A DNA stretch of 64,000 bases. Source: a virus (taxonomy: Duplodnaviria > Heunggongvirae > Uroviricota > Caudoviricetes). Positions 10,589 to 63,724 of the stretch are shown one piece after another. The stretch spans positions 39,453 through 103,452 of IMG/VR virus record IMGVR_UViG_3300021438_000001; one strand, 5' to 3'. The notes below the pieces were generated by a model. That model saw nothing but the letters and a program-made list of their open reading frames with translations. It did not search any database and was not told where the DNA came from. The position numbers were made by a program, and so were the translations under genes. Position 1 is the stretch's first letter. Every line of letters starts with the position of its first letter.

Positions 10589-10597
10589 AAGAAAACA

Positions 10598-11605: not shown

Positions 11606-11653
11606 CCATTTCAAAACCAGCTCTATACTTGGGGTAACTCAAGTAGGAGCTGC

Positions 11654-12363: not shown

Positions 12364-12422
12364 AAACGCTTCAATGCCCTGGGGTAGCGCAGTACGATAA
12401 GAACAACAACGAAAGGTAAGAA

Positions 12423-12833: not shown

Positions 12834-12854
12834 GTCATTACTGACAGGAGAAAC

Positions 12855-15856: not shown

Positions 15857-16436
15857 GTCGTTTGCGGAACTTGTCAAAGAGTTCCTCAATTCACCAGGGT
15901 ATAGTACGTCAGAAGTGACTAAGTACGGTGGGCATGACGAATACATGAAAGAGCTGTCCACTCGCAACATTGAAAGCAAAACAACGATGCCACCAACCGA
16001 ACCAAAGATTGAGGCGACAGACGCCGCACCATCTGAGATCGACACCATCGCGGCCGAGTACACCGCCGCCTTCGAGAAGTCCGACGAAACCTTCATGCTC
16101 GGCGAGCCGCTGACGCTCACGGTGCTGAAGGACAAGGGCTACTCGAAGGCGCCGCACGTCGGCTCCGAAGACTTCAAGCCTGTGCGCGCCTACATGGGCA
16201 AGCGCGGCAAGATGATCTTTGTGTTCAAGCCTGTGATGGTGACGAACTACAAAGAAATGGAGATGGAGGAGAGTCAGGCGCTCAAGAGCCTGCTCGGCTT
16301 CAAAGAGTTCCTGAACGAACACCTCAAGTCTGTGGTCGAGCGCCTGAAAGAGACTCGCATCGAACTGGCGGCAGAAGCGGAGCGCAAGAGCCTCGCTGAC
16401 CGATACGAAACCTATGAAGGCTTCGGATCGTGGTAG
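15822..16436 (+). CDS. hypothetical acidic protein
   Basis: 204-aa ORF; RBS GAAGGAAAG before the ATG. Confidence 0.4.
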   Translation: MERFQEPPVPAKSFAELVKEFLNSPGYSTSEVTKYGGHDEYMKELSTRNIESKTTMPPTEPKIEATDAAPSEIDTIAAEYTAAFEKSDETFMLGEPLTLTVLKDKGYSKAPHVGSEDFKPVRAYMGKRGKMIFVFKPVMVTNYKEMEMEESQALKSLLGFKEFLNEHLKSVVERLKETRIELAAEAERKSLADRYETYEGFGSW

Positions 16437-16651
16437 TCGAAGCCGCATTTGAGCAGGCCAAGTATCAAACAGGCGGCAGCCGTCACCGCGATTGGGAAGT
16501 AGTACTCACGCTGCGCATGTCGCCAGACGAAGCGCAGAAGTTCCAGAACGCCCTGATGAACCGAACCAGCCACCTGATACACCTCAACATCCAGTCAGCT
16601 CTTTCAGAAGAGGACACCCCAACAACACCAACAGAAAAGGATCATTGGTAA
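16430..16651 (+). CDS. hypothetical small protein
   Basis: GTG start overlapping the previous stop; fills the gap to the RuvC-like gene. Confidence 0.2.
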   Translation: MVVEAAFEQAKYQTGGSRHRDWEVVLTLRMSPDEAQKFQNALMNRTSHLIHLNIQSALSEEDTPTTPTEKDHW

Positions 16652-17220
16652 TGAGAATTATTGGCATCGACCCATCGCTGCGAAACTTCGGCATCGTTCA
16701 AGCCGAGCTGGACCCGCAGACTCTGGACTTCAAGATCGGCGAAATGCGCCTGGTTGAGTCCGAGGACAACGCGACCAAGGCGAAGACGGTTCGCAAGAAC
16801 TCCGACGACCTTCGACGCGCTTCCATCCTCTTCGAAGGCATGGTTGAAGCAGTGAAGGGTGCTTCCTTTGCGTTCGTTGAGGTGCCTGTCGGCTCTCAAA
16901 GCGCACGAGCTATGGCGTCATACGGCATTTGTATCGGTGTGTTGGCTGCTTGCCCCATTCCGATCATTCAAGTCACGCCAGGCGAGGTCAAACAGGCTGC
17001 CACCGGCTACAAGACCGCTGAGAAGTCGGAGATGATCGCTGCTGCCGTCAAAGAGTTCCCCGAAGCCAAGTGGCTGACTCGCAAGGTCAAAGGCGAAGTC
17101 AAGCTGGTCAACGACAACGAACACTTGGCTGACGCCTGTTACGCAATCAAGGCCGGTCTGCGCTCGGCCGAGTTCAAGTCGGCGCTGGCAATGTTTCGAG
17201 CTGCTCATTCTGCCGCCTGA
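16651..17220 (+). CDS. RuvC-like Holliday junction resolvase
   Basis: N-terminus MRIIGIDPSLRNFGIV is RuvC-like (MIILGIDPG...GYGV). Start trimmed from the track start (16492) to the ATG with RBS AAAGGA. Confidence 0.55.
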   Translation: MRIIGIDPSLRNFGIVQAELDPQTLDFKIGEMRLVESEDNATKAKTVRKNSDDLRRASILFEGMVEAVKGASFAFVEVPVGSQSARAMASYGICIGVLAACPIPIIQVTPGEVKQAATGYKTAEKSEMIAAAVKEFPEAKWLTRKVKGEVKLVNDNEHLADACYAIKAGLRSAEFKSALAMFRAAHSAA

Positions 17221-20567: not shown

Positions 20568-20644
20568 AGCGGGTTAGCTCAGTTGGTTAGAGCGCCGGAT
20601 TCATAATCCGGAGGCCGCAGGTTCGAGTCCTGTGCCCGCAACCA
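20568..20644 (+). tRNA. tRNA-Met (anticodon CAT; could be Ile-lysidine type)
   Basis: Cloverleaf read by hand: D arm GCTCAGTTGGTTAGAGC, anticodon loop TTCATAA, T arm GCAGGTTCGAGTCCTGT, 3' ACCA; position 1:72 is an A-A mismatch. Confidence 0.7.
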
Positions 20645-20645
20645 T

Positions 20646-20721
20646 TCCCTAGTAGCTCAGTTGGTAGAGCAATGGACTGTTAATCCATGTGTCGGTGGTT
20701 CGAACCCACCCTGGGGAGCCA
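20646..20721 (+). tRNA. tRNA-Asn (GTT)
   Basis: Acceptor TCCCTAG/CTGGGGA, anticodon loop CTGTTAA, T loop GGTTCGAAC, 3' GCCA. Confidence 0.8.
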
Positions 20722-20816
20722 TCAAGACTGTTCTCTCTAAGAGGCAACCGTCCCGCAGCGCGAGTCGTACCGTGCCGCATCGACTAACGCCCACCAGAGA
20801 ACAGCCTTGATGGAAC
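20722..20816 (+). ncRNA. structured spacer element A (candidate stable sRNA)
   Basis: 13-bp closing stem CAAGACTGTTCTC / GAGAACAGCCTTG (one mismatch); internal conserved boxes TCTAAGAGGCAAC and GCCCACCAG shared with element B. Confidence 0.35.
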
Positions 20817-20891
20817 GCTCGGTTCGTCTATCGGTAAGGACACTGGCCTTTCACGTCAGTAAGGCGGGTTCGATTCCCGCACCGAGTACCA
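20817..20891 (+). tRNA. tRNA-Glu (TTC)
   Basis: Acceptor GCTCGGT/ACCGAGT (G1-U72), anticodon loop CTTTCAC, T arm GCGGGTTCGATTCCCGC, 3' ACCA. Confidence 0.75.
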
Positions 20892-20894
20892 GTT

Positions 20895-20971
20895 CGGAGA
20901 TTAGCGCAGTCTGGTAGCGCATCTGCTTTGGGAGCAGAGGGTCGTAGGTTCGAATCCTACATCTCCGACCA
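20895..20971 (+). tRNA. tRNA-Pro (TGG)
   Basis: Acceptor CGGAGAT/ATCTCCG, D arm GCGCAGTCTGGTAGCGC, anticodon loop TTTGGGA, 3' ACCA. Confidence 0.8.
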
Positions 20972-21063
20972 TGAAGTTTGGTCACTCTAAGAGGCAACGG
21001 CTAGGTTCCCTGATTCTGATTCGGGGAGGCGATGTTAAGCCCACCAGTGACCAAACTTGATGG
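20972..21063 (+). ncRNA. structured spacer element B (paralog of A; candidate stable sRNA)
   Basis: Perfect 12-bp closing stem AAGTTTGGTCAC / GTGACCAAACTT; same CTCTAAGAGGCAAC and GCCCACCAG boxes as A; ends ...CTTGATGG like A. Confidence 0.35.
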
Positions 21064-21150
21064 GTAGATAGACTTGTAGGGGGCAAGAGCGGACTGTAAA
21101 TCCGTTGTTCTGCGGAACCCCACTGGCTCGACTCCAGTTCTGCCCACCAC
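21063..21150 (+). tRNA. tRNA-Tyr-like (GTA) with long variable arm, irregular 5' half; possible pseudogene
   Basis: Clean anticodon arm GCGGA-CTGTAAA-TCCGT, variable hairpin GTTCtgcgGAAC, T arm ACTGGctcgactCCAGT and 3' TCTGCCC-A-CCA. No 5' strand pairs with the 3' acceptor: GGGCAGA is needed but GGTAGAT/GGGCAAG is found. Confidence 0.3.
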
Positions 21151-21226
21151 GCCACCTTAGCTCAGTTGGTAGAGCAGCTGCCTTGTAAGCAGAAGGTCTG
21201 GGGTTCGATTCCTCAAGGTGGCACCA
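21151..21226 (+). tRNA. tRNA-Thr (TGT)
   Basis: Acceptor GCCACCT/AGGTGGC, anticodon loop CTTGTAA, T arm TGGGGTTCGATTCCTCA, 3' ACCA. Confidence 0.8.
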
Positions 21227-21328
21227 TCATGAGTGAAGACTTCTGGGTTCGATTCCCAGGGGACGGGTGAAACTAAAACGGCTAACTACCGACCTATCCC
21301 GAGCTGGACGAAAGTCTTCACCCATGAT
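21227..21328 (+). ncRNA. structured spacer element C (candidate sRNA or tRNA-derived remnant)
   Basis: 15-bp closing stem CATGAGTGAAGACTT / AAGTCTTCACCCATG (one mismatch); contains a perfect tRNA T-arm-like hairpin CTGGGTTCGATTCCCAG; ends ...CATGATGG. Confidence 0.3.
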
Positions 21329-21404
<76 letters not shown>

Positions 21405-21405
21405 A

Positions 21406-21490
21406 GCCCAGGTGGTGAAATTGGTAGACGCAACAGCTTCAGGTGCTGTCGCCGCAAGGCGTGCCGGTTCGAGTCCGGCTCTGGGCACCA
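21406..21490 (+). tRNA. tRNA-Leu (CAG), type II
   Basis: Acceptor GCCCAGG/TCTGGGC, anticodon arm ACAGC-TTCAGGT-GCTGT, long variable arm, discriminator A, CCA. Confidence 0.8.
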
Positions 21491-21491
21491 C

Positions 21492-21576
21492 GCGCTCGTG
21501 GTGGAATTGGTAGACACGCTGTCTTGAGGTGGCAGTGCCGAAAGGTGTGGGAGTTCGAGTCTCCCCGAGCGCACCA
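21492..21576 (+). tRNA. tRNA-Leu (GAG), type II
   Basis: Acceptor GCGCTCG/CGAGCGC, anticodon arm CTGTC-TTGAGGT-GGCAG (anticodon GAG), long variable arm, discriminator A, CCA. Confidence 0.7.
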
Positions 21577-22578: not shown

Positions 22579-23064
22579 ATGAGTGAAATCAAACTGGGTT
22601 GTATCGCCATTGACCAGGCTTCGGGCTTCGAAGGCACGGTCATTTCCAAGCTCGAAGCGTTCAATGGCAACGTGCAGTACGGTCTTCAGCCCAAAGCTGC
22701 AAAGAGTGCCGACAAGCTGCCGGAAGCGTGGAACTTCGATGCCGCACTGGTGAAGTTCAAAGCAAAGGGCATCAGCGAGCAGGCGACAACGCCTCAAGCG
22801 ACCGACATCCAAATCGGCGATGAAGTCGAGGACATCATCAGCGGCCACAAGGGTATCGCGTCGAGCAAGACGACCTTCCTGAACGGCTGCGTTTACTTCG
22901 ATGTGGTCAAGCCCGCGAACGACGCCAAGAAGATCGAATCGACCGCGATGTTCATTTCCTGCGTCCGTCTGAAGAAGGTCAGCAAGACTCCGCTCAAGCC
23001 TCTCGTGCCCAAGAACGAGAAGCCCACTGGCGGCCCCGCAACCCGTGCGATGCGAGCCTGCTGA
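22579..23064 (+). CDS. hypothetical protein
   Basis: 161-aa ORF; RBS AAGGAGAAC. Confidence 0.45.
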   Translation: MSEIKLGCIAIDQASGFEGTVISKLEAFNGNVQYGLQPKAAKSADKLPEAWNFDAALVKFKAKGISEQATTPQATDIQIGDEVEDIISGHKGIASSKTTFLNGCVYFDVVKPANDAKKIESTAMFISCVRLKKVSKTPLKPLVPKNEKPTGGPATRAMRAC

Positions 23065-23894
23065 TGACGATCATTACTGCCAAGGTCATCGAAGATTCGG
23101 TCGCGGCAGATACCGGAGTTCGCCTCACCACGATGCAGCTCCAGTACCCGCGCTTCGTTCACGCTGAGTTCATGACCCATCGTGTGTTCAGCCGCAACGC
23201 CAGCTCCAGTCGAGCCATCCCTGTCTCCAAGGTGATTGAGCAGGTTCGCAACGATCCGGCAATGCCTGTTCACTGGGGTAAGAACCAGCCAGGCATGCAG
23301 GCTCGTGAGGAGTTGGACCATGATGATCAGCAAAAGGCCGTGACTCTGTGGCGACGCGCCGCGAACGAAGCTGCCGACACTGCGGAAATGATGATGAACC
23401 TCGGCCTGCACAAGCAGGTTGCCAACCGCATTCTGGAACCCTTCCAGTACATGCACGTCATCATGTCCAGCACTGAATGGGACAACTTCTACGAGCTGCG
23501 TGACCACGAGGACGCTGACCCCAACATCTTTGCGCTGGCGAAGGTGATGCGTGTCGCCCAAGAGCGTTCTGAGCCGTCGATTCGCTTCGAAAACGACTGG
23601 CATCTGCCTTACGTCTCTCGCGCCGAACGCCTGGAACACTACGGCAACTTCGAGTTGCTCCTGAAGCTCTCGGCTGCTCGTTGCGCTCGTGTGTCTTACC
23701 TGACCCATGACGGTAAAGAGCCAGAGATCGAGAAGGACATTGCGCTCTATGAACGCCTCGTCGGTGGCCGTCCGCTCCATGCGTCGCCCATCGAACATCA
23801 AGCCACTCCGCTTCTGTCTGCCGACCAGTGGTCAGGCAACTTCAGAGGCTGGATGCAGAACCGTCAAATTGTGGAATCAGGAATGAAGCAATGA
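23064..23894 (+). CDS. thyX: flavin-dependent thymidylate synthase (ThyX-like)
   Basis: HAEFMTHRVFSRNASSSRA resembles the ThyX RHR-x7-S signature block; sits in a nucleotide-metabolism context. Confidence 0.55.
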   Translation: MTIITAKVIEDSVAADTGVRLTTMQLQYPRFVHAEFMTHRVFSRNASSSRAIPVSKVIEQVRNDPAMPVHWGKNQPGMQAREELDHDDQQKAVTLWRRAANEAADTAEMMMNLGLHKQVANRILEPFQYMHVIMSSTEWDNFYELRDHEDADPNIFALAKVMRVAQERSEPSIRFENDWHLPYVSRAERLEHYGNFELLLKLSAARCARVSYLTHDGKEPEIEKDIALYERLVGGRPLHASPIEHQATPLLSADQWSGNFRGWMQNRQIVESGMKQ

Positions 23895-48546: not shown

Positions 48547-48821
48547 TCGAAGACAGCAGGGTGTGAGGAGAACTCACACCCTTTGTTCGTTGAAGACGCT
48601 GCCTAGGGATGCCTAGGAGTACGGCAAGACGGCTGAACAGAACCGCCTAGGAAGAGTGATCGACAGCCTCGGAGTACGGCTGGACGGCTGAATGAAATCG
48701 CCTAGGAGTACGGCTGGGTGGCTGAGTAGAGCAGCGTAGGAGGTCGGGGAGGTCAGGGCGGTCGGTGACGTTGGAGTCGCCGAAACGCGGATGAGAATCG
48801 TCCTCATCCAACTCTCCTATA

Positions 48822-48950
48822 AGACCCAAGACCAGTCTCCTAGGAGAGTAGTCTCCTATAAGACATAAGAGAAGTCTCCTAGGAGAGTAGTCTCCTGTCT
48901 CCTAGGAGAGTAGTCTCCTGTCTCCTATAAGACTTGATTGCCTGCCCGTG
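48822..48950 (+). repeat. iteron-like cluster: 3x palindrome TCTCCTAGGAGAGTAG interleaved with 3x TCTCCTATAAGAC
   Basis: Direct reading of 48,822-48,950; adjacent to an AT-rich stretch. Confidence 0.6.
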
Positions 48951-48984: not shown

Positions 48985-49035
48985 TGACGATTGAAAAAAT
49001 CAATCAGCACGATTGAAAAAATCAATCACAAAATG
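48985..49035 (+). promoter_or_regulatory. tandem palindromic operator-like sites GATTGAAAAAATCAATC (x2)
   Basis: Two identical 17-bp palindromes 20 bp apart in the AT-rich leader of the 49120 gene. Confidence 0.5.
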
Positions 49036-49119
49036 ATTGTTTTCTGGTTTGATTGTGTTATAGTTCAGTCATCGGTTGATTTTGACCGATACAACAAACC
49101 AACTTTTAAGAGGTACAAC

Positions 49120-49761
49120 ATGAGCAAAGCAAACGCAAACACTAGCAAAGCGAAGCAAGGTAAAAACGCAGTAGCAGCAAAGACCGACTATCAAGCGTTG
49201 ATCTTAGCAGCTATTCAAAAGCGAATCGACAATGCGGACAATGACAATCAACGCGACACGCTGCAAGCTGAATACAAGTTTTTCAATGACGCAAACGGTG
49301 CAGCTATTCTAAGCAAGTGCAGCGAAATTCAAGGTTTGAACCTTGCAGCATTGGTGCAACAAATTGCAGTTCTCAAGACAGAATCAAAGAGTGATTTTCT
49401 CGCAGTGTATGCACTGCAAAAGGTACGCAAAGCACTGTATGCACTCGCAAACAATGCGCGTTCATCGTTTGATGGTTATTCTAACTCTATCATGTTCAAT
49501 CTGGTGAAGCTGCAAACGGTGAACACCAAAGAGACGCGCATGAGCATTTGCAAAGCTATCGAATATAGCGAAACCGAACAAGTGCAAGCACTCAAACGCT
49601 TGCACAATTGCAGCGAATCGACCGCAAGCACTCAAGCAAGTAGCACGCGAATGATGCTCAAAGCGTTGAACCTTGCAAACGTGATCAAGTCAAAAAACAA
49701 TGACGCTATCACGCTTCAAGACAATGACGCAGCGCGCATGATTGTGACAATGTACGCTTAA
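49120..49761 (+). CDS. hypothetical protein encoded in a low-GC island (Ala/Asn/Lys-rich, alpha-helical)
   Basis: RBS AAGAGG; base composition markedly AT-richer than the rest of the window. Confidence 0.45.
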   Translation: MSKANANTSKAKQGKNAVAAKTDYQALILAAIQKRIDNADNDNQRDTLQAEYKFFNDANGAAILSKCSEIQGLNLAALVQQIAVLKTESKSDFLAVYALQKVRKALYALANNARSSFDGYSNSIMFNLVKLQTVNTKETRMSICKAIEYSETEQVQALKRLHNCSESTASTQASSTRMMLKALNLANVIKSKNNDAITLQDNDAARMIVTMYA

Positions 49762-50242
49762 CAGTGAAACCGATAGAGCGTGACACAATCACGCTCTATC
49801 AATGAAACCTATTGGAGATTGATAATGATTGATTTTATTGATTGTGCAGTAATTGCAATCGGTGCAGTGTACGTGATAGCGTGTCTCTATCGACCAGATG
49901 TGATGCTGTAATGTGAAAAAGAATACCGAAGTCCTAGAGATTTTCGGTTGCCTAGGAGGCGACCCCTTCCTCGTTCCGACCTCTCCCGAGCGCCCCTTAT
50001 ACAGCCAGGCAGACCCCTGAGATCACATCCTTATACAGCCGGCACACATAATGTAAAACGTACTTTGCAAAAGCGCCCCCAAGTGACAAATACGCTTTAC
50101 GTTAGTTCAGAATCCGTAAGACCGAGCGGAAAATGACCCGATGGGGACATTTCAGGCCCAAATCCCCACGTTCGCACCGAAAATGACCCGATGAGGACAT
50201 TTGCTTATCCTTATACAAGCAAAAAATTTCGAGGCGAGTGGG

Positions 50243-50614
50243 TCAAGATGGGAAATGAGAGCGCAACTTCTCGGCAAACAGGACTTTGACTCCGGCGGCT
50301 GTCGCCGCAGTCGTCATGTCCCGTGTGCCAGCACCGCCTTCGAAAGCGATGACGAGATCAGGTTTGCCAAGCTCCAGCATCAGCCTGTTGCGAATGGGGC
50401 CAGCGCGTGACCCGTGCTTCTTCCAGTCCGCAGGTACGCCAAAGCTCGTGCAACCGTCTTTCTGAGCTGCCCATTGCTCTGCGATGCTGTCAGCACCCGA
50501 CGCACAACCGTGGATGATCAGATTGATTGATTTTTTTGCGTGAATTGCGTCCAGAACGAAACTAATGAAATTTTTTTCGTTGTTGTCACGACCACCGCAG
50601 ACGAGGACTCTCAC
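50243..50614 (-). CDS. SLOG-superfamily protein (DUF2493/YspA-like, LOG-related Rossmann)
   Basis: VLVCGGRD...HGCASGADSIAEQWA...ADW.KHG.RAGPIRNRLML...PDLVIAFEGGAGTRDM matches the DUF2493 pattern. Confidence 0.55.
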   Translation of the reverse strand: MRVLVCGGRDNNEKNFISFVLDAIHAKKSINLIIHGCASGADSIAEQWAAQKDGCTSFGVPADWKKHGSRAGPIRNRLMLELGKPDLVIAFEGGAGTRDMTTAATAAGVKVLFAEKLRSHFPS

Positions 50615-50817
50615 CAGACCTCCCCGTAGCGTTCCTTGTACTGGCGCTCTGTCTCCATCTGCTGCTTGTGTTGAGCGGCACCCCTGCGCATCTGCGCCAC
50701 CATGCTCATCTGCGACTCCCGATCACAGGCGTTCCAAACCGCTGGCTTGATCTCGTGACCGGCGTCGAAGCCACACTCCAAGCGAAGCTGGCAGTACTCA
50801 TCGTAGAGGGTAGTCAT
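50611..50817 (-). CDS. hypothetical small protein
   Basis: ATGA-coupled chain on the - strand. Confidence 0.4.
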   Translation of the reverse strand: MTTLYDEYCQLRLECGFDAGHEIKPAVWNACDRESQMSMVAQMRRGAAQHKQQMETERQYKERYGEVW

Positions 50818-51026
50818 TTGTACCTCGCCATGTTGAGCTTGATGCGTTCTTCGTGAACCTCGATGCAGGCATTGCGAAGCTGTTGCAGCCTGGCTTTCTG
50901 CTCAGGTGTCTTGTCCTTGTCTGGCGTCTGGTGGATGTCGCAGATCGCACGGTTGTAGGCTGCCAGAACCCACTCCGAGACTGTCCACTCATCGACGGTG
51001 ATGGTGCAGATTGACGACGCCATCAT
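50814..51026 (-). CDS. hypothetical small protein
   Basis: Start trimmed to the ATGATG overlapping the upstream stop. Confidence 0.35.
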   Translation of the reverse strand: MMASSICTITVDEWTVSEWVLAAYNRAICDIHQTPDKDKTPEQKARLQQLRNACIEVHEERIKLNMARYK

Positions 51027-51226
51027 GCGTACCTGTCGTTCTTGAAGTCTTCGTCGGAAATGGCAAAGGTGCAATGCTGCGCCAGCGCATCTGCCGCCTC
51101 TTCCAGAAGGTCTGCGAGGCGGTCTGGTTTGCCTTCCTGCACCGACTTGCGCCCAGGAATTTGCCGACGAATCTCAGCCCGCTTGCGCAGCCGATACACG
51201 AGGTCTTCGATCTTGTTGGTCATCAC
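51023..51226 (-). CDS. hypothetical small protein
   Basis: GGAGG RBS before the ATG at 51226 (start MTNKIEDL...). Confidence 0.35.
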   Translation of the reverse strand: MMTNKIEDLVYRLRKRAEIRRQIPGRKSVQEGKPDRLADLLEEAADALAQHCTFAISDEDFKNDRYA

Positions 51227-51471
51227 GCCTCCAGTCGATACAGTTTGAATGGACGGCTCTTGTCGAGTCCGGCACTGCTTCGCACCCACTTGATCACGTC
51301 AGCACGGTCTTGGCTGGTCATCGTCATGGGGAAATTGCAGCCTTCGGTCATGTAGATCGCGACGTAGATGAATCGCTGGTTGGACGTGACCAGTTGCGGC
51401 TTGGGCGCGGCCAGCTCTTCGAGGTCGGCTTCCGTGAGGTCGCCCCAGTCGTTTGCCAGCTCATCCATCAC
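51223..51471 (-). CDS. hypothetical small protein
   Basis: Coupled chain. Confidence 0.4.
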   Translation of the reverse strand: MMDELANDWGDLTEADLEELAAPKPQLVTSNQRFIYVAIYMTEGCNFPMTMTSQDRADVIKWVRSSAGLDKSRPFKLYRLEA

Positions 51472-51710
51472 TTGCCTTCCAGGGCGATCTGGTGCATCAG
51501 CTCCAGCGTCTCGTTCTCGTCAGGCGTCATCGCATCCATGATCGCTTGGGCGTTGTCATGGTGGTCGAGGAACAAGAACTGCGCGGTCATCGCCTTCTCG
51601 TACTCACCCTCACTGATTCGCTGCCACATGAGCGCCAGCATGTAGACCGCCGACCACGCTTGGATCAGGTAATTCATCGGCTTGTTGATGTGGTGGGTCT
51701 TCTCCGTCAT
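51468..51710 (-). CDS. hypothetical small protein
   Basis: Coupled chain. Confidence 0.4.
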   Translation of the reverse strand: MTEKTHHINKPMNYLIQAWSAVYMLALMWQRISEGEYEKAMTAQFLFLDHHDNAQAIMDAMTPDENETLELMHQIALEGK

Positions 51711-52105
51711 TTCTTCTCCCAGAATGATTCGGCTTTTCCATAAAACGGAAAGGCTGCTTGTTTTTGTCCGTTATCCAGCGCCAGGCGGCCGCACTTCGGT
51801 GTGCGGCAGCGATGGTTCGGCCGGCAGCCAGGGCAGGGGTCGTCAGGTGGTGCGCCAGCCGCGACTTGCAGTTGTTCATTCGTGACTGATGTGTTGTCTG
51901 CCATAGCTGGCGGGTTGATGCGAACAGGTGGATGCGGTTGATTCCACCACAGCACCTTGCCACCCTCGGTGATAGCACCGTGGCGCGTCACGCCGTCTTC
52001 GCCAGGCATCGAAAAGCACACTCCGTTGATCTGCCAACCGGCGTTCTGAAGGTCATCGAGCTTGCGCTTGGCGACCCCTTGAAATTCGAGACAGACTGTG
52101 GTCAT
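51707..52105 (-). CDS. hypothetical protein with C-terminal Cys cluster
   Basis: DPCPGCRPNHRCRTPKCG. Confidence 0.45.
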   Translation of the reverse strand: MTTVCLEFQGVAKRKLDDLQNAGWQINGVCFSMPGEDGVTRHGAITEGGKVLWWNQPHPPVRINPPAMADNTSVTNEQLQVAAGAPPDDPCPGCRPNHRCRTPKCGRLALDNGQKQAAFPFYGKAESFWEKK

Positions 52106-52362
52106 GTCAGCTCCTTAAAGAAGAACCGAAACTTCTTGCCGCACTTGGGACATTGCTCGACCGTCTCGTTGCTTGTGACTTGCTCCAACCGCTCGGTCTT
52201 CGTGTCGTCATAGGGGCACAGAGCCTCCATCTGAGGGCTGATGTCGAACATTGGCAAGAACGGCTGCTTCTCGCGCCTGGGGAACGTGTTCTGCCAGGCG
52301 GTAGTGAACTGATCGACAGGCACCACGAATGGACGTGGTGCGCTGCCCTTGCCGCCGCTCAT
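52102..52362 (-). CDS. zinc-ribbon small protein
   Basis: EALCPYDD...EQCPKCGKKF. Confidence 0.45.
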   Translation of the reverse strand: MSGGKGSAPRPFVVPVDQFTTAWQNTFPRREKQPFLPMFDISPQMEALCPYDDTKTERLEQVTSNETVEQCPKCGKKFRFFFKELT

Positions 52363-52658
52363 GTCTCGTCTTTCGGCAGTTGGGCTGCCAGGGCTTCGAG
52401 CTGCTCGGGGGTGAGCTTGCTCAGACGCTTCAGAATGGCGGTCTTGCCGGTGCGACCAGCTACCTTGGCCTCACGACGAGCCTTGAACGCTTCTTCCAGC
52501 TTGCCCATGTCGGCGCTGTCCATGAGCGTCTCAACGACCGCACCTTGAGAAATCTTGTAGGTCTTGGCGATCTTGGCGAGCTTCTCCTGCACGGTCTGCT
52601 CGACCACGATGGCGTAACGCTTGCCCTTCTCTTCGGCAACGTGGGTTTCCGTAGTCAT
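52359..52658 (-). CDS. small DNA-binding regulator, ribbon-helix-helix-like
   Basis: GGAGAAA RBS before the ATG at 52658; KRYAIVVEQTVQEKLAKIAKTYKISQGAVVETLMD; first gene downstream of the - strand promoter and operator. Confidence 0.4.
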   Translation of the reverse strand: MTTETHVAEEKGKRYAIVVEQTVQEKLAKIAKTYKISQGAVVETLMDSADMGKLEEAFKARREAKVAGRTGKTAILKRLSKLTPEQLEALAAQLPKDET

Positions 52659-52679
52659 GTGTTTCTCCGTTGAAAAATG

Positions 52680-52725
52680 ATTGTGTTTGCTAAGTATACA
52701 ACAGCAAACCTTATACAAGCAAAAC
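52680..52725 (-). promoter_or_regulatory. promoter-like TTGCTTGTATAAGG motif plus TTTGCTgttgtatacttAGCAAA palindromic operator (- strand)
   Basis: Reverse-complement reading of 52,680-52,725; lies directly 5' of the RHH-like gene. Confidence 0.45.
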
Positions 52726-52798
52726 GATGGGCAAAAAAATAGCCCCGTAGATGGGGCTAGAGGTTAGGAGGTAAAAACTGATTATACCGTCGATTCGC

Positions 52799-52990
52799 TT
52801 ATTTCTCTTCGTGGTGAACAAATCCGATGGGATTTCCCTGTTCTTCTTCGTCCTGATCGGCAAGCATAAGACCAAACGGCATTTCCTTGAGGAACATCAG
52901 GGCAAATAGCGCGAGGGGATTACTTGTCAGAATGATGGTCAGAACGATAGCGCCGATGATTGCGAGGTTGATGAGGAGTGCGTGGAGCAT
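52799..52990 (-). CDS. small membrane protein
   Basis: 63 aa, 2 TM. Confidence 0.35.
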   Translation of the reverse strand: MLHALLINLAIIGAIVLTIILTSNPLALFALMFLKEMPFGLMLADQDEEEQGNPIGFVHHEEK

Positions 52991-53056
52991 AGCCTGCCTT
53001 TCTAGTTATGTCATGACTGAGTGACATTCTAGGACAGTCAGGCAAGATTGCAAGAC

Positions 53057-54598
53057 TTAGGCGGTAGCGGCGCTGAAGATTCCGTAGTCGAAGTCAGCCT
53101 CATCCGGAAGCACGTTCTCCCCGAAACCCTCGGTATCGGTGACGATCTGGCGGCGCTGCTGCGCGTGAGACTTCAGGTAGGTGTTGAAGTCGTCTTGGAA
53201 GTCGAGAATGAACGCGCAGTTCGGCCCTTTCTTCTTGGCTCGAAGACCGCGACCGATGCGCTGGCGCAGCGCAACCTCGGCCTTACCACCGCCACCCAGA
53301 ATCACCATGCCGACTGCGGGAACGTCTACACCAACGTCCAGAATGGTCGAACCGATCAGAACGTCAATTGCACCAGTGGCGAGCTGTGAGAGTGCTTGCT
53401 TGCGCTCCGCTTGGTCATTGTCACCGTCGATGAACCGCGCACGTACACCTGCTTCGAGGAGCATGTCGCGCAGAAGGTGTCCATGCGCTTTCTGCTGGAT
53501 CAGAATCATGGTCGAGAGCTTGTGGCGAGCTGCTCGGGTCGCTTCGGCAATCATGATTGCGTTGCGCTCGACGTTCTGGACGATACCCAGACGGTAGGCA
53601 GCCTGCCAGGGCGTGCCGCGCAGCAGATGCTGAGGCTTTTGCTTGAGCTTGGCGTACTTGAAGATCGGACGAGCAAGAATGCCTCGGTCGATGAGCATCT
53701 TCTCGGTCACTTTGATGCCGATTGAGCCAAACGCAGCCATCAGACGCATGTTGGACTCTTCGTTGTCCTTCATGAATGGCGTGGCGGTCAGCGCCAGGCG
53801 GTAATGAGCATTCTTGCAGTGGCGAAGAATCTCGTAGTAGCTGTTGCCGGATGCCTCGTGCGCTTCCTCACCGATCACGAACTCGAATTTGCCCAGAAGG
53901 TCGATGGTTTGCTGACGGATCGCAGCCTGCTTGTTCTGCTGCTCGATGGTGTCGTCGGGGTTGGGTTCCTGAAGACGTGAAACGAGCGTCTGAACCATGC
54001 CAACCGACATTTTCTTGATGTACTGGCGTCCGTCCGCACCCGTGAAGCCGAATTGACCGTCGCCCAGTACCGAGCAGGGGATGCCGAGATCGTTCTCGAA
54101 CGTGTCCTTCATTTGGTACATCAGAATGCCGCGAGTGGTCAAAAACAGAGTAGGGCGGTTGATTCGCATGAACGCCAGGCGCGCAATGCGTGACTTGCCA
54201 CCGCCTGTGGCGACCTGAGCAATCATGGAGCCGTGCTTGCACAGCCGGTTCACCACTTCCATCTGATAGTCGTAGCGCGGGTCTTCGGGGAATGCGTCAA
54301 CCTTGGGGTTCTCGGGGCCTGTTGGCAGCGGCAAAGGCTTGCGAACGCGATTGACCTTGTAGCCCTCTCGCGTGAGCTGCGCCGCCACGTAGTTGACGAA
54401 GCCAGCAGGGAAGGTGCCGGTGCGGAAGTCAAAGAAGGACGACCGACCGTCCCAGTTGCCTGTTTTGAACGCCCCAGTATGTTCCGCACCCTCGACTCGG
54501 TAAGAAACATACTTCTGGACGGCCAATTTTGCTTGACGTGTCGGCTCATGCAGCTTGGCTGTCGTGGCGTTGTAGGCAATCGTTACGATTTCAGTCAT
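53057..54598 (-). CDS. SF2 DEAH-box DNA helicase
   Basis: Walker A VATGGGKSRIA, DEAH box IGEEAHEA, motif III LTATPF, arginine finger QRIGRGLR; AAAGGAA RBS; track start at 54625 over-extended. Confidence 0.8.
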   Translation of the reverse strand: MTEIVTIAYNATTAKLHEPTRQAKLAVQKYVSYRVEGAEHTGAFKTGNWDGRSSFFDFRTGTFPAGFVNYVAAQLTREGYKVNRVRKPLPLPTGPENPKVDAFPEDPRYDYQMEVVNRLCKHGSMIAQVATGGGKSRIARLAFMRINRPTLFLTTRGILMYQMKDTFENDLGIPCSVLGDGQFGFTGADGRQYIKKMSVGMVQTLVSRLQEPNPDDTIEQQNKQAAIRQQTIDLLGKFEFVIGEEAHEASGNSYYEILRHCKNAHYRLALTATPFMKDNEESNMRLMAAFGSIGIKVTEKMLIDRGILARPIFKYAKLKQKPQHLLRGTPWQAAYRLGIVQNVERNAIMIAEATRAARHKLSTMILIQQKAHGHLLRDMLLEAGVRARFIDGDNDQAERKQALSQLATGAIDVLIGSTILDVGVDVPAVGMVILGGGGKAEVALRQRIGRGLRAKKKGPNCAFILDFQDDFNTYLKSHAQQRRQIVTDTEGFGENVLPDEADFDYGIFSAATA

Positions 54599-54604
54599 CA
54601 AATT

Positions 54605-54640
54605 CCTTTTGTGTAAGGCTTGCAAAGTCTTTGTATAAGG
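54605..54640 (+). promoter_or_regulatory. promoter-like CTTGCAaagtcTTTGTATAAGG motif in a divergent intergenic region
   Basis: Same composite motif as at 47492; followed by a GTCAgcaaTGAC palindrome. Confidence 0.4.
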
Positions 54641-54716
54641 ATTATAGTTCAGTCAGCAATGACTAACAAATCCATTAGGCCCGTCCGTGAGTAATTCCAA
54701 AAACATCAAGGTGGAG

Positions 54717-55346
54717 ATGATTGACCCAGGGCGGCTTTCGCCAAACCCCTGGAACACCAACATCGTTTCACCCGAAAACATGGCGAAGCTCGATGCCAGC
54801 ATCGAACGACTTGGCCTGTTCAAACCAATCGTCGTCCGAGAACTCAAAGACGGCTCTCTCGAAATCCTCGGTGGCGAACACCGATGGGAGTCGGCAAAGC
54901 GCCTGGGCCACCAGAGTGTGCCTATCGTCAACCTCGGTAGCGTCACAGACAAGCGAGCCAAAGAGATTGGCCTTGTCGATAACGGTCGCTACGGGGCCGA
55001 CGACACGCTTCAGCTTGCAGGCTTGCTCGATGACCTTGGTCTGAGTCCAGAGGAGCTGTCGAGCTTCATGCCTTATTCCGAGAGCGACTTCGCGTCGATC
55101 TTCTCAAGCGTGAATATAGAGCTGGATGACCTTGACCTCGATGACGGGGATAGCGAACCCCAACTGCCGGCAACCAAACCCACCCAGACGCATCAAATTA
55201 TGCGTTTCAAAGTCCCAGTCGAGGACGCAGGAGCCATCTCCGAGCTGATCGAGAAAACCATGAAGGAGCAACGCTTTGTCGATGAAGATTCACTTTCTAA
55301 TGCCGGCAATGCCCTTGTTTTCCTCATCGGAGCCACAGGAAAGTGA
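54717..55346 (+). CDS. ParB-like nuclease domain protein (paralog 1)
   Basis: ParB N-terminal domain pattern: LEILGGEHRWESAKRLG ... VPIV; GGTGGAG RBS. Confidence 0.55.
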   Translation: MIDPGRLSPNPWNTNIVSPENMAKLDASIERLGLFKPIVVRELKDGSLEILGGEHRWESAKRLGHQSVPIVNLGSVTDKRAKEIGLVDNGRYGADDTLQLAGLLDDLGLSPEELSSFMPYSESDFASIFSSVNIELDDLDLDDGDSEPQLPATKPTQTHQIMRFKVPVEDAGAISELIEKTMKEQRFVDEDSLSNAGNALVFLIGATGK

Positions 55347-55353
55347 GTCGGAT

Positions 55354-55542
55354 GTGACCAAGTGTGCCTACCGCTACCCAGAGTGCGAAACGTGCGTCAA
55401 CCACGTCTACGACCCCGATATGTGTGATGAGTGCGAAGACGCCGACTGCTATGAGGAAGGCGACACGGAAGAGGACTTCTTCGACCGCCCAGAGGACATG
55501 ACTATTCAAGAATTTAAGGACTTCCTCAACGGAAGCTCCTGA
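55354..55542 (+). CDS. Cys-rich acidic small protein
   Basis: GTG start; YRYPECETCVNHVYDPDMCDECEDADC. Confidence 0.25.
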   Translation: MTKCAYRYPECETCVNHVYDPDMCDECEDADCYEEGDTEEDFFDRPEDMTIQEFKDFLNGSS

Positions 55543-60124: not shown

Positions 60125-60787
60125 ATGACAGAAGAAGTAATCAAAAAGAAAAAGCCGAAGCCTCGTAAGAACTCGCCCCGCATGTCTGCTCGCAAGTGGG
60201 CGGAAGCCGAAGCTCTGTGGGAGGCCGGCGAGATCACAGTTAATGAATTGGCGACCAAGTTCGGTTTGAGTCGCCAGGCGTTTCAACGCCACTTCAAAGC
60301 CCACGGTGTCGTGTTCGGCTCTAAGAAGGTCGAGCTGAAGAAAGCCGTTTCTGAAGGCGTGACGAAAGCAGTTCAAGAGGACGCACAAATCCTCGCAGCT
60401 CGCATTAAAGAGACGAAGGAAGAGCATTACAAGATGGCTTCCGGTCTGGCGAAGCTGACTTGGGCGGAGATTCTCAAAGCGAAGCAAGACAGCGTGCCTG
60501 TGGGCACCGCGATCATGAACCTGAAGGCGCTGGACACAGCGGCATCGGTTCTGAAGAAGACACGCGAGGAGCGTTACGCAGTCCTGGGTCTGGACAAAGA
60601 CGCAGTGGACGAAAACGACGTGCCGGAACTGGTGATCTCGGAACTGACCGCAGATCAGATCGAGGCATTGCGCAACCGCAGCTTCCAAGAGATTGACGAG
60701 ATCGACGTTGAAGTCGATGAAGACACCAGCAACAGCCTGGCCGACCCAGATGAGGACGGCGAAGACGATGTTGTCGAGGAGAAGTAA
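60125..60787 (+). CDS. terminase small subunit (HTH DNA-binding, acidic C-tail)
   Basis: Basic N-terminus, HTH ITVNELATKFGLSRQAFQRH; directly upstream of and ATGG-coupled to the large terminase. Confidence 0.5.
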   Translation: MTEEVIKKKKPKPRKNSPRMSARKWAEAEALWEAGEITVNELATKFGLSRQAFQRHFKAHGVVFGSKKVELKKAVSEGVTKAVQEDAQILAARIKETKEEHYKMASGLAKLTWAEILKAKQDSVPVGTAIMNLKALDTAASVLKKTREERYAVLGLDKDAVDENDVPELVISELTADQIEALRNRSFQEIDEIDVEVDEDTSNSLADPDEDGEDDVVEEK

Positions 60788-62034
60788 TGGCTCGACAGCG
60801 CGTCAATCTCTCACTTCACACCAAGCAGATGGAGGTCTTTCGCTCCACCTGCCGCTATCGCGTCGTTGTCGCGGGGCGTCGTTGGGGTAAGACCGCGCTG
60901 TCTCGCGTTCTGATCATCAAGAAGGCACAGAAAGCCAAGCAAAAAATCTGGTACGTGGCACCCACGTACAAGATGGCAAAGCAAATTATGTGGGTTGACC
61001 TGATGGATGCGATTCCGCGCAAGTGGATTCGCAAGGTCAACGAAACCAGCCTGACGATCACGCTGATCAACGGCACTCGCATCGAGCTGAAGGGCGCCGA
61101 CAAGCCGGACTCGCTTCGTGGCGTGGGTATCCACTTCCTTGTGCTGGACGAGTTTCAGGACATGGCGGAAGAGGTCTGGACGCTGGTTCTGCGACCCACT
61201 CTTGCTGACACAGGCGGCCATGCGATCTTCATCGGCACCCCAAAGGCGTACAACTACCTCTACGAGCTTTACAAGAAGGGCCAGAACAAGCGCCTGACGG
61301 CGACAAAGCAGTGGGAGAGCTGGCAGTTCCCCACGATCACTTCGCCGTTCATCCCGCTCGATGAGATTGAGGCGGCTCGGTCCGACATGGACGAGAAGAG
61401 CTTCCGACAAGAATTCGAAGCCAGCTTCGAAACCATGTCTGGGCGCGTCTACTACCCGTTCGACCGCAAGACCCACATCGGCAAGTACGAGTTCAATCCA
61501 AAGCTGCCCATCTGGGTGGGTATGGACTTCAACATCGACCCGATGTCCACGGTGATCTACCAACCGCAGCCCAGTGGCGAGCTGTGGGCGGTGGATGAGA
61601 TTGTGCTATTCGGCTCAAACACGGAAGAGGTCTGCGAGGAGCTGGAGAAGCGGTACTGGCGCCACCAGGCGCAGATCACCGTCTACCCTGACCCTGCCGG
61701 CGGACAGCGCCAGCACGCTCGTGGTGAAACCGACATGGACATTCTTCGAGAGAAGGGGTTCAAACGCATCAAGTACCGTCGCAAGCACCCGATGGTGGCT
61801 GATCGCGTCAACGCAGTGAATCGAATGCTGCGCGATGCCAACGGCAAAGTGCGCTTGAAGATTGACGAAAAGTGCAAGCACTTCATCAACGCGATGGAAC
61901 AAACCATCTACAAGAAGGGAACCCGAGAGGTCGATAAATCGGCCGGCGTGGAACACTCGGCTGACGCGGGTGGCTACTGCATCGAGCTGGAATTCCCAGT
62001 CCGCAAGATCGAGGTTGGTGGCATCTCGATTTAA
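60787..62034 (+). CDS. terminase large subunit
   Basis: Walker A VVVAGRRWGKT; Walker B/adjacent LVLDEFQD; C-terminal RNase-H-like nuclease region (VYPDPAGGQ). Confidence 0.85.
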   Translation: MARQRVNLSLHTKQMEVFRSTCRYRVVVAGRRWGKTALSRVLIIKKAQKAKQKIWYVAPTYKMAKQIMWVDLMDAIPRKWIRKVNETSLTITLINGTRIELKGADKPDSLRGVGIHFLVLDEFQDMAEEVWTLVLRPTLADTGGHAIFIGTPKAYNYLYELYKKGQNKRLTATKQWESWQFPTITSPFIPLDEIEAARSDMDEKSFRQEFEASFETMSGRVYYPFDRKTHIGKYEFNPKLPIWVGMDFNIDPMSTVIYQPQPSGELWAVDEIVLFGSNTEEVCEELEKRYWRHQAQITVYPDPAGGQRQHARGETDMDILREKGFKRIKYRRKHPMVADRVNAVNRMLRDANGKVRLKIDEKCKHFINAMEQTIYKKGTREVDKSAGVEHSADAGGYCIELEFPVRKIEVGGISI

Positions 62035-62077
62035 TCCTTGACATCAGTCACCAGTGACGTATAAGATAGGCGCCCAA

Positions 62078-63724
62078 ATGAGCAACTTCCAACTTAAACC
62101 CAACGAGAGCATGTCGGTTGACCCGAAGAGTCCGCTTGCAGGCGCAGGCACGGCTCCGACCACTGACGAGCAAAAGAAGCTGAAGGCTCTGATCGAACGC
62201 CGCCACCCCGAATATGTGGAGAACGTCGATCACTGGGAGTTTCTGGAAGAAACCTACGAAGGTGGGCGCGAGTGGTTCAAGGAGAACATCTTCCGCTACA
62301 TCAAGGAAGGTGACACTGAGTTTGCCGACCGCCTGGCTCGCGCATATCGCTTCAACCACAGCCGCGAGGTTGTGGACCTTCTGAACAAGTACCTGTTCAA
62401 ACAAAACATCCAGCGCAACGACGCCGATGCACCCGAGTCGGTGAAACGCTTTTGGAAACGCGCAACGCTCAACGGGTTGGGCATCAAAGACCTGGCACGC
62501 CAAATCTCGAAGAAGGCTTCGATCTCTGGTCGCGTCGGCATTGTGATCGACAACACAACCCAAGGTCAGTTGGTCGTGTCGAAGGCGGATGAGAAGAAGT
62601 CCGGCGTTCGCACTTACGCCTACATCGTCGGCCCAGAACAGCTTCTGGACTACGCCTTCGATGACACTGGCGACCTGACATGGGCGCTGATTCAAGAGTG
62701 TGTCCGTGACGACGCTGACCCACTCACATCGTCTGGTGAAGAGGAAGAACGCTTCCGTCTGTGGACGAAGAACGAATGGAAGCTGTACCAAGAGGTGAAA
62801 GAGGGCCGCAAAAAGGTCATCAAGCTCATCGACAGCGGCGAGCATAACCTCGGCATGGTTCCGGTCGTCCTGGCGGACAACATCATCTCCGACGAGGAGT
62901 ACTGCGCTCCATCGCTGATCGGCGACATCGCCTATCTCGACCGCGCAGTGGCAAACTACCTGTCGAACTTGGATGCAATCATCCAAGACCAAACCTTCTC
63001 GCAACTGGCAATGCCGGCTCAGAACGTGCTGCCAGGCGAGGACAACTACACCAAACTCACAGAGATGGGCACGAAGCGCATCTTCCTCTATGACGGGGAA
63101 GGTGGCGCAGCGCCGTTCTATCTTTCGCCTGACCCAAAGCAGGCACGAATGATCATCGAGACGGTCAACAAGATCATCTCGGAGATTTACCACACGGTCG
63201 GCCTGGCTGGTGAACGCACCAAGCAGGACAACGCGATGGGTATCGACAACTCCAGTGGCGTTGCTAAAGCCTTCGACTTCGAGCGAGTGAATGCTCTGTT
63301 GGCGGCGAAAGCAGACAGTCTTGAAGTGGTCGAGAACAAGATCGTGACCATTGTGGCAGCGTGGAACGGTGAAGAGTCCAAGGTTCAGGACAAGGAACTT
63401 GTCTCTTACCCCGACGACTTCGACACCCGTGGCTTGTACGACGAGTTCGACATCGCCGCACGCCTGATGCTCATCGACGCTCCTGACGAGGTGCGCCAAG
63501 AGCAGATGAAGTCGGTGCTGGACAAGCTGTTCCCGCAAATTGGAGAGGCTGTTCGAGGAAAGCTCGATAAGGCTCTCAAAGATTGGCCTGTCGATCCATT
63601 GTCTTTGGTTCCCCCAGTGCAAACCGTGGGTGAATCGAACAAGGACGGCAACGTCAAAAGCGGTCTGACGGTCAAGAAAGACCCGAAAGACAACAAGCAA
63701 GGGCAGAACAACTCTGCTCCTTAA
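62078..63724 (+). CDS. portal protein (by position and size)
   Basis: 548-aa ORF immediately 3' of the large terminase; start ambiguous (GTG 62054 vs ATG 62078). Confidence 0.5.
   Translation: MSNFQLKPNESMSVDPKSPLAGAGTAPTTDEQKKLKALIERRHPEYVENVDHWEFLEETYEGGREWFKENIFRYIKEGDTEFADRLARAYRFNHSREVVDLLNKYLFKQNIQRNDADAPESVKRFWKRATLNGLGIKDLARQISKKASISGRVGIVIDNTTQGQLVVSKADEKKSGVRTYAYIVGPEQLLDYAFDDTGDLTWALIQECVRDDADPLTSSGEEEERFRLWTKNEWKLYQEVKEGRKKVIKLIDSGEHNLGMVPVVLADNIISDEEYCAPSLIGDIAYLDRAVANYLSNLDAIIQDQTFSQLAMPAQNVLPGEDNYTKLTEMGTKRIFLYDGEGGAAPFYLSPDPKQARMIIETVNKIISEIYHTVGLAGERTKQDNAMGIDNSSGVAKAFDFERVNALLAAKADSLEVVENKIVTIVAAWNGEESKVQDKELVSYPDDFDTRGLYDEFDIAARLMLIDAPDEVRQEQMKSVLDKLFPQIGEAVRGKLDKALKDWPVDPLSLVPPVQTVGESNKDGNVKSGLTVKKDPKDNKQGQNNSAP

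Follow-up and report, generated by a model that had tools for sequence, protein, structure and literature searches.

Why should a 64-kb stretch of phage DNA whose genes otherwise lie on one strand keep a single block of them on the other, and does that block belong to the core of the genome or to its accessory cargo? The question is raised by positions 50243–54598 of a 64,000-nucleotide stretch (the window) of the tailed-phage record IMGVR_UViG_3300021438_000001, where 11 genes run on the minus strand from a helicase gene to one encoding a SLOG (YAcAr/DUF2493) protein. The initial annotation took this block for an accessory, anti-defence or host-takeover module rather than core replication. 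Comparing sequences with those of related loci leads us, with reasonable though far from full confidence, to favour a composite: the block is probably one arm of a divergent control region, read leftward by the RNA polymerase of the host, built of core and exchangeable parts and arranged as two nested transcription units.

A codon-usage caller trained on the long open reading frames (ORFs) of the window chose 50243–54625 as its sole minus-strand stretch, all other chosen genes lying on the plus strand. Gene calls made independently for the same phage in six metagenome samples agree, with proteins of 513, 63, 99, 86, 132, 80, 81, 66, 70, 68 and 123 aa, and the earlier claim of a single minus-strand block in 64 kb stands. 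From the helicase end, the genes are hel (53057–54598, 513 aa), tm2 (52799–52990, 63 aa), rhh (52359–52658, 99 aa), which encodes a ribbon-helix-helix (RHH) protein, znr (52102–52362, 86 aa), cys132 (51707–52105, 132 aa), s80 (51468–51710, 80 aa), s82 (51223–51471, 81/82 aa), s66 (51023–51223, 66 aa), s70 (50814–51026, 70 aa), s68 (50611–50817, 68 aa) and, last in the operon, the SLOG gene (50243–50614, 123 aa). The nine genes from rhh to SLOG are coupled through start/stop overlaps of 1 or 4 nt. The gene coordinates of the initial annotation hold, with the helicase and SLOG genes separated by tm2, rhh and seven cargo genes; its ‘zinc ribbon’ label for znr is weak, the protein having three cysteines only and no histidine.

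The seven coupled small genes from znr to s68 fill 1.74 kb (50615–52358), and it is here that relatives differ. Against the two nearest relatives, blastn homology is continuous from 57.9 kb down to 52331/52367 and comes back at 50613/50614, the loss beginning where rhh terminates (stop codon, about 52359) and ending where SLOG opens (start codon, 50614). Across 11 related islands, otherwise collinear and with conserved flanks, the rhh–SLOG interval holds two to seven genes of many different families. Within this set znr, s82, s66 and s70 are unique to the window phage, s80 and s68 are common only to the relative L010 (related loci are numbered with the prefix L), and cys132 has just a CPGC-x5-C-x4-C module in common with a patchwork family. 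Because content differs and the breakpoints fall at the rhh stop and the SLOG start, 50615–52358 is a cleanly delimited exchange site, and since its cargo is exchanged wholesale between relatives, the genes can be regarded as dispensable, niche-specific early genes. The accessory label therefore fits 50615–52358, with its swapped content and sharp breakpoints, and fails for the helicase and RHH, which are syntenic in relatives: the interior varies across the 11 islands while the helicase–ParB order is constant and the RHH pairing is kept.

In these respects the slot resembles the hyperplastic or accessory early-gene regions of other phages, in which small, closely packed genes lacking Pfam matches change from one collinear genome to the next and the flanks serve as recombination anchors. 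It differs from them in being unusually sharp, from stop codon to start codon, and in lying inside one translationally coupled operon that runs from a regulator to SLOG. In one relative, L014 (82% helicase identity), the entire rhh-to-SLOG operon is missing; its place (12060–12600 of that locus) is taken by about 0.6 kb with a minus-strand ORF of 92 aa and, as a guess from the translation, possibly a tRNA. In two others (L004, 12819–13388; L026, 6238–6846) the slot holds a 2OG-Fe(II) oxygenase (PF13759).

What the cargo does is harder to read from its families. Only 2 of 26 non-redundant cargo proteins pooled from related islands have a Pfam match (2OG-FeII_Oxy_5 and the membrane protein DUF2061). 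Searched by tblastn against 50,697 cultured phages, the window cargo has no homologue apart from the s66 motif, and low-sensitivity pattern scans of IMG/VR detect no relative of znr, s82 or s70; the status of the cargo as ORFans is defined solely by these two kinds of search. Host-interaction or anti-defence roles for the cargo are plausible from this setting, and anti-defence in particular is a reasonable guess for some of the genes, one that no computed result here supports. A broader version of this idea, which we consider unlikely, is that everything downstream of the helicase, SLOG included, forms an anti-defence or host-takeover cassette. The tiny proteins would then act as inhibitors of defence or housekeeping proteins in the host, and an immune signal derived from nucleotides, such as cADPR isomers, cyclic oligonucleotides or NAD+ derivatives, would be bound or destroyed by SLOG. 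Tiny, coupled genes of an early type, lying behind a sigma-70 promoter and turning over quickly among relatives, are what such a cassette would contain. However, neither SLOG, nor the seven cargo proteins, nor tm2 match a conflict family in PADLOC, Pfam, NCBIfam or PHROG, no dedicated anti-defence library having been used.

The cargo protein with the widest reach is s66, which carries a near-invariant module of 40 aa (DLVYRLRKRAEIRRQIPxRKSVQEGKPDRIADLLEEAAD) with 26 invariant columns across 23 diverse members. The motif has at least 7,983 matches, with no Pfam domain among the matches listed, and the family comprises at least 1,728 clusters at 50% identity, with no entry in Pfam or PHROG; the motif is likewise absent from the literature searched. 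Over 29 aa, the module is 93–97% identical to proteins of Caulobacter jumbo phages and of Rhodobacter and Limnohabitans phages. Identity at third codon positions is just 41%, which places the constraint at the protein level, and an AlphaFold2 model predicts a helix-loop-helix (pLDDT 76). A near-invariant module in very different phages is what would be expected of a binder of a conserved host target, and this counts in favour of the anti-defence cassette. An apparent s82–s66 fusion found by tblastn in Myxococcus phage Mx1 is an artefact of low-complexity sequence; the s66 module downstream of it is genuine.

Turning to the conserved part of the proposed composite, the helicase is of the UvsW type: both the superfamily 2 (SF2) ATPase core and the UvsW N-terminal domain are detected. 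In Pfam it matches ResIII (1.2e-14, 55 bits), Helicase_C (9.4e-13, 48.8 bits) and UvsW_N (PF21241, 26.9 bits against a cut-off of 25.3), it matches PHROG 16 ‘DNA helicase’ at 1.6e-99, and the best solved structure is T4 UvsW (2oca, E 1.5e-15), over the C-terminal half. Its Walker A motif is GGGKS and its motif II reads EEAH (GEEAHE) rather than the DEAH assigned initially. The protein thus shares with T4 UvsW, and with its SSU5-like, RHEph10-like and Nickie-like homologues, the SF2 core and the UvsW-specific N-terminal domain, although it is distant from the T4 protein in sequence and differs from it in motif II, in its near-consensus sigma-70 promoter and in the two-transmembrane peptide encoded behind it.

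The phage itself is uncultured, with a genome of about 108 kb, and is by its proteins a relative of SSU5, RHEph10 and BUCTxx99. A megablast of the block against the 50,697 cultured phage records returned 0 nucleotide matches, hence no cultured close relative; one island protein recurs in identical form on a contig of 108,326 bp, which is probably the full genome. At the protein level, the helicase is 46–49% identical to those of 103–120-kb phages from several host genera, namely Rhizobium phages of the RHEph10 / RHph_N1_15 type, Stenotrophomonas phages BUCTxx99 and ANB28, Xanthomonas phage JGB6 and SSU5-type phages of Salmonella, Klebsiella and Escherichia, and 41–43% identical to those of Pseudomonas nickie-type phages. 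A scan of genome contigs with the helicase led to one mis-binned contig of a metagenome-assembled genome, and no host is assigned. The arrangement of two ParB genes opposite the helicase is invariant in SSU5, RHph_N1_15, BUCTxx99 and 18 IMG/VR loci, down to 46% identity, so that the helicases of cultured relatives occupy the identical place, and a member of the rhh family stands directly behind the helicase also in SSU5 (SSU5_123) and BUCTxx99. On this synteny, helicase and RHH are, as far as sequence comparison goes, core for the whole phage group.

As in the T4 UvsW system, the likely partners of such a helicase in recombination-dependent replication are co-encoded, here on the plus strand: a gp32-like single-stranded-DNA-binding protein (SSB; PF08804, 8798–9616), a RecA/UvsX-like recombinase (PF00154; PHROG UvsX-like; 10598–11605), SbcD/SbcC (12855–15856), the counterpart of gp46/47, and a RuvC-like resolvase (16492–17220). 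An exonuclease gene (9632–10588, plus strand) lies among them. This T4-style toolkit (8798–17220) is 36 kb from the helicase, on the opposite strand. In the scan, which covered a subset of the window ORFs, none of the proteins was recognisable as a UvsY-like mediator.

The helicase shares its predicted transcription unit with tm2, which has two hydrophobic segments and an acidic tail in its hydropathy profile, is kept at 44–77% identity in every relative with helicase identity of at least 72%, and has no family match in Pfam, PHROG or NCBIfam. Behind tm2 lies an intrinsic terminator (52733–52759, minus strand) whose stem TAGCCCC/GGGGCTA (52740–52759) is followed by U7. Its folding energy of -13.1 kcal/mol corresponds to z = -3.47, with 0 of 200 shuffles folding as well, and the hairpin is kept in all close relatives.

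The second unit begins just downstream of this terminator with rhh. Searched as a single sequence against Pfam, the RHH protein gives no RHH match, and only the family profile detects the fold: a profile of 18 homologues matches CopG (1b01) at E 1.7e-4 over residues 2–42 of the 45-aa CopG, Reg576 at 1.7e-3 and ORF56 at 2.9e-3, so the RHH call was correct. The N-terminal 41 aa match the strand-helix-helix of CopG (pMV158, 1b01/2cpg) end to end, in likeness also to Reg576 and pRN1 ORF56. Unlike CopG, the window protein has an extra conserved tail of about 50 aa (RTGKTAxLKKLSKL..EQLEAL), its gene is always linked to a helicase gene, and its operator is only a candidate. A PbeC match in PADLOC is sub-threshold.

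Upstream of rhh lies the candidate promoter P_rhh with its candidate operator (52685–52723, minus strand), which combines a -35 box TTGCTT (52722–52717), an 18-nt spacer and a -10 box TATACT (52698–52693). The -10 box is framed by a 7-nt inverted repeat GTTTGCT/AGCAAAC (52685–91 / 52703–09), a third AGCAAA (52718–23) overlaps the -35 box, and the 9-mer TGTATAAGG stands at 52709–52717. At the same position L038 and L039 have TTGAAC/TTGATC-16-TATAAT, and in a subgroup of relatives the stretch from the rhh -10 box to the start codon contains a palindrome, AGCA-N4-TGCT. A regulator gene directly behind a promoter with inverted repeats around its -10 box is the classic autoregulatory layout of CopG-type repressors, and RHH is presumed to act as an autoregulator of its own promoter.

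The predicted promoter of the helicase unit, P_hel (54669–54641, minus strand; TTGTTA-17-TATAAT), scores 10/12 in a scan against a sigma-70-type consensus scored out of 12 and carries the palindrome GTCAGCAATGAC (54652–54663) in its spacer. Facing it on the plus strand is P_parB (54620–54648; TTGCAA-17-TATAGT, 9/12), which serves the ParB-to-terminase operon and has TGTATAAGG (54632–54640) in its spacer. The initial annotation had placed promoters near 54.6 and 52.7 kb; the first is borne out, and the second is present in sub-consensus form (8/12). The two divergent -10 boxes (54641–54646 and 54643–54648) overlap by 4 bp, and a GTCAnnnnTGAC-ACTATAAT-CCTTATAYAAG-N-TTGCAA/TTGGCAA block is kept in 10/10 close relatives. 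Given this overlap, occupancy by RNA polymerase should be mutually exclusive and the leftward and ParB/terminase operons should compete for the enzyme; the divergent pair (54620–54669) looks like a compact early/late switch.

The 9-mer found in both promoter regions recurs elsewhere. TGTATAAGG (CCTTATACA on the opposite strand) occurs 8 times in the window against 0.03 expected, at 17688, 17921, 47505, 49995, 50029, 50209, 52709 and 54632, six copies being intergenic and two within ORFs; 8-mer versions are at 26675 and 38744, and TATAAGGA is at 17742. There are clusters of three at 17.69–17.92 kb and 49.99–50.21 kb. Among ten close relatives, five keep the 9-mer beside the P_hel -10 box and the other five have the variant TATATAAGG; six keep it in P_rhh, with shortened variants elsewhere; and just after SLOG most have 2–4 copies about 34 bp apart, with the degenerate GTATAAGGA in all. 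Candidate binders are the p256-family protein described below and a phage-encoded sigma-70 region-2 protein (2702–3352, plus strand; PF04542, 27.7 bits against a cut-off of 24; PHROG 351 ‘sigma factor’, 2.9e-12), whose presence implies a phage-specific promoter class. It is possible that TGTATAAGG is a promoter element for this sigma-like protein; against this, its distance to the -10 boxes varies and several copies are antisense.

Three of the copies, all in minus orientation, fall in the gap where the block converges with the plus-strand genes (49912–50242): those at 49995 and 50029 are 34 bp apart, and that at 50209 sits within an inverted repeat TTTGCTT/AAGCAAA (50200–06 / 50217–23). The direct repeats already reported at this convergent end are real, with two occurrences of AAAATGACCCGATGRGGACATTT in all (50130 and 50180) where 0 are expected. 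Both (50130–50152 and 50180–50202) are 18-bp near-palindromes, ATGACCCGATGGGGACAT, 50 bp apart; the pair recurs with the same spacing in L010 and as a single copy in L004, and it may be an operator-like pair. Rfam gave no match between 45 and 55 kb, and a possible terminator some 300 nt beyond SLOG folds no better than shuffles (z +0.9); no terminator in the gap has statistical support. On the far side of the gap lies the p256-family gene (48991–49761, plus strand; 213 aa in the independent call), which encodes a conserved, basic protein (pI 9.5; PHROGs 9272/4202, with no assigned function). It always adjoins the motif-rich convergent gap, also in relatives without rhh–SLOG, and its non-synonymous divergence (dN) reaches 0.77.

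We propose the following scheme for how the composite might work. The first unit, formed by P_hel, the helicase, tm2 and the terminator, would be the core, with the helicase, judged from homology, most likely serving branch migration and the remodelling of forks or R-loops for recombination-dependent replication together with the gp32-like SSB, UvsX/RecA, SbcCD and RuvC-like resolvase encoded upstream. The second unit would run from P_rhh through SLOG and begin with the CopG-type RHH, which probably represses its own promoter via the TTTGCT/AGCAAA repeats around the -10 box. There would follow the recombination-delimited slot of seven coupled tiny genes swapped wholesale, with the conserved rhh and SLOG acting as homology anchors for cassette exchange. 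At its end, SLOG would be a small protein that binds, and possibly processes, a nucleotide or nucleotide derivative for phage DNA or nucleotide metabolism; we do not take it for a fast-evolving immune antagonist. The leftward operon and the rightward ParB/terminase operon would compete for RNA polymerase through their overlapping -10 boxes, a competition probably set by factors at the conserved palindrome and the TGTATAAGG site.

The part of this scheme most open to other readings is SLOG. The assignment to the family held up, with PF10686 matched at 64.9 bits (cut-off 28.2; E 6e-18) over the full 66-position profile and PHROG 289 at 7e-24, and PF10686 is found in 120/120 homologues among the matches listed. 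The family motifs GGR, GxxxGAD, AGPxRN and GGxGTxD are all present, and the predicted structure (pLDDT 96) has a Rossmann-like SLOG fold with the glycine-rich loops GGR, GxxxGAD and GGxGT. A profile search against PDB sequences gave spurious BtuF matches only, with no solved structure of the family detectable by sequence. Compared as a fold, the model is about equally close to YpsA (12.9), TM1055 (12.5), ShosA (12.0), DprA (11.7), the SLOG domain of ThsA with 3'cADPR (11.2) and LOG (11.1), and the near-equality of YpsA, LOG, DprA and ThsA makes the protein a generic minimal SLOG core. Five invariant residues (R9, D42, R75, N76 and T97) and an acidic position that is conserved (D99) are compatible with a pocket for a small molecule. 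A LOG phosphoribohydrolase is set aside, as neither the LOG/Lysine_decarbox family nor the PGGxGTxxE motif is found. The window protein resembles other members of the YAcAr/DUF2493 family (PF10686, PHROG 289; D29 gp61; the C-terminal domain of ICP1 HelB) in its motifs and its stand-alone length of about 120 aa, and differs in its setting, a helicase-associated operon in which it stays fixed and anchors the 3' side of a cassette slot.

How fast SLOG evolves, and among which genes, bears on the anti-defence cassette. Against nine relatives its dN is 0.10–0.22, as slow as the helicase (0.08–0.17), unlike typical arms-race proteins, and far under that of rhh (to 0.48), cys132 (to 0.54), tm2 and the p256 gene next door. 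Among cultured phages, 855 records contain homologues, and the family extends through tailed phages, with D29 gp61 among the structural matches, to one archaeal tailed virus, pandoraviruses and marseilleviruses, so that YAcAr is at home also in archaeal and giant eukaryotic viruses. Using Pfam, we took a census of the ORFs that flank YAcAr genes on 57 non-redundant viral contigs, counting the 124 that reach 125 aa or more. The commonest neighbours are DNA_pol_A, NinB, integrase, YkuD, RNaseH_like, DUF3987, DnaB, UDG and RNR, and Macro, NADAR and Nudix are absent from the 25 commonest families. The literature searched reports no experimental function and no anti-defence activity for phage DUF2493/YAcAr. 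Low dN, replication-type neighbours, the HelB fusion described below and wide viral spread weigh against a fast arms-race role, and SLOG is a clade-conserved, slowly evolving anchor. We rank first the reading of SLOG as a putative nucleotide-binding or -processing protein of phage metabolism, ahead of a counter-immune protein and of a DprA- or UvsY-like mediator.

The last of these would make SLOG a minimal DprA-like protein in the role of UvsY, loading UvsX/RecA on gp32-coated single-stranded DNA alongside the UvsW helicase, with which it shares a strand block. The genome has gp32-, UvsX/RecA-, SbcCD-, RuvC- and UvsW-like genes and, among the proteins scanned, no recognised UvsY, and this would leave a vacancy for it. 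YAcAr genes lie by DNA polymerase, as in Klebsiella and Escherichia phages, or within replication modules of many phages, and in ICP1 a DUF2493 domain is fused to the superfamily 1B helicase HelB (10.1101/671271). The protein is basic (pI 9.2; family median 8.7), many mycobacteriophage homologues are annotated ‘DprA-like’, and a paper on jumbo phages proposes that SLOG/DprA proteins might replace UvsY. However, these annotations are transferred labels, the mediator screen covered some of the window ORFs only, and relatives that keep the helicase can be without SLOG. In DprA the Rossmann core is accompanied by further domains, SAM-like at the N terminus and winged-helix/DML1-like at the C terminus. 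The window protein is a single SLOG core throughout its 123 aa, with no space for such flanking domains, it scores 15.7 bits with PF02481 against a cut-off of 29.6 with no passing stretch, and DprA is no closer to it than YpsA or LOG; an ordinary DprA is thereby rejected. We regard the mediator role as rather improbable.

We would give about as little weight to a further combination, in which the whole rhh–SLOG operon is an integron-like cargo slot, SLOG is either a UvsY-type mediator or an enzyme or sponge for immune signals, and s66-like cargo is a widespread effector aimed at a host target.

Several points weigh against the composite with a metabolic SLOG that we prefer. P_rhh, with its score of 8/12, falls under the scan threshold. 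The RHH protein is an unlikely binder of TGTATAAGG, since L014 keeps the sites without the rhh operon, and RHH more likely reads the TTTGCT repeats than the 9-mer. The pocket residues of SLOG leave the identity of its ligand unspecified, and the neighbour census is guilt by association, drawn from regions that also hold accessory genes. One YAcAr gene lies near DUF4326, MPTase-PolyVal (a polyvalent-protein peptidase) and PLDc_2, and chemistry on molecules derived from NAD+ and ADP-ribose has been predicted for phage YAcAr domains (PMC7824862); both also speak for the anti-defence cassette. Finally, SLOG is absent from L012–L014 (helicase identity ≤82%), and in SSU5, RHph_N1_15 and BUCTxx99 it did not turn up in the 6 kb examined beyond the helicase gene on its downstream side. 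Missing from those relatives, it is itself dispensable at a larger scale.

The neighbourhood of the block invites yet another explanation. Between 46200 and 49000 the GC content is 0.47–0.49, there are almost no ORFs, and iteron-like repeats are dense: GGAGTACGGC..GGCTGA six times, CCTAGGCATCCCTAGGC three times, and an array of TCTCCTATAAGAC / TCTCCTAGGAGAG with palindromes at 48811–48936. This region is a candidate origin, partition site or regulatory hub. The block next to it could accordingly be imagined as the control region of a lysogenic or plasmid-prophage state, with the CopG-like RHH as a copy-number or switch regulator acting with the two ParB-like proteins and the iterons of 46.2–49.0 kb. 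CopG is a plasmid copy-control repressor, SSU5-type relatives are phage-plasmids with repressor genes just downstream of the helicase, and the convergent gap has conserved repeats of a protein-binding type. Yet a search confined to the block identified no integrase, ParA, Rep or CI-type repressor, the ParB_N proteins head the terminase operon as they do in lytic relatives, and the RHH–helicase pair is found also in Rhizobium and Stenotrophomonas phages deposited without annotation of lysogeny. We think this explanation distinctly improbable. Between the two ParB_N genes there is a small acidic (pI 4.1), Cys-rich ORF (55276–55542, plus strand; 80 aa in the independent calls), which is kept in most relatives at 38–58% identity.

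Elsewhere the window encodes a PolIII-alpha-like polymerase (4307–7777), ribonucleotide reductase (17819–20239), nine tRNA genes on the plus strand (Met, Asn, Glu, Pro, Tyr, Thr, Trp, Leu and Leu; 20568–21576), thymidylate synthase (23064–23894), terminase (60787–62034) and portal (62054–63724).

Returning to the composite of core and exchangeable parts, its significance is that an island of unknowns becomes a map, in which a core of UvsW helicase and RHH is told apart from an exchangeable segment, 50615–52358, whose breakpoints are exact. Host-interaction or anti-defence genes of this uncultured group of phages are naturally sought in that slot, which also offers itself as a site for engineering. 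Hundreds of cultured phages, D29 included, carry members of the YAcAr SLOG family, as do archaeal and giant viruses, and the slow evolution of the protein and its replication-module context favour a conserved role in metabolism or on DNA over one in an arms race. The very large, unannotated s66 family would matter more broadly, and the overlapping divergent promoters, together with the conserved operator-like sites, would bear on what may be an early/late switch in this phage group.

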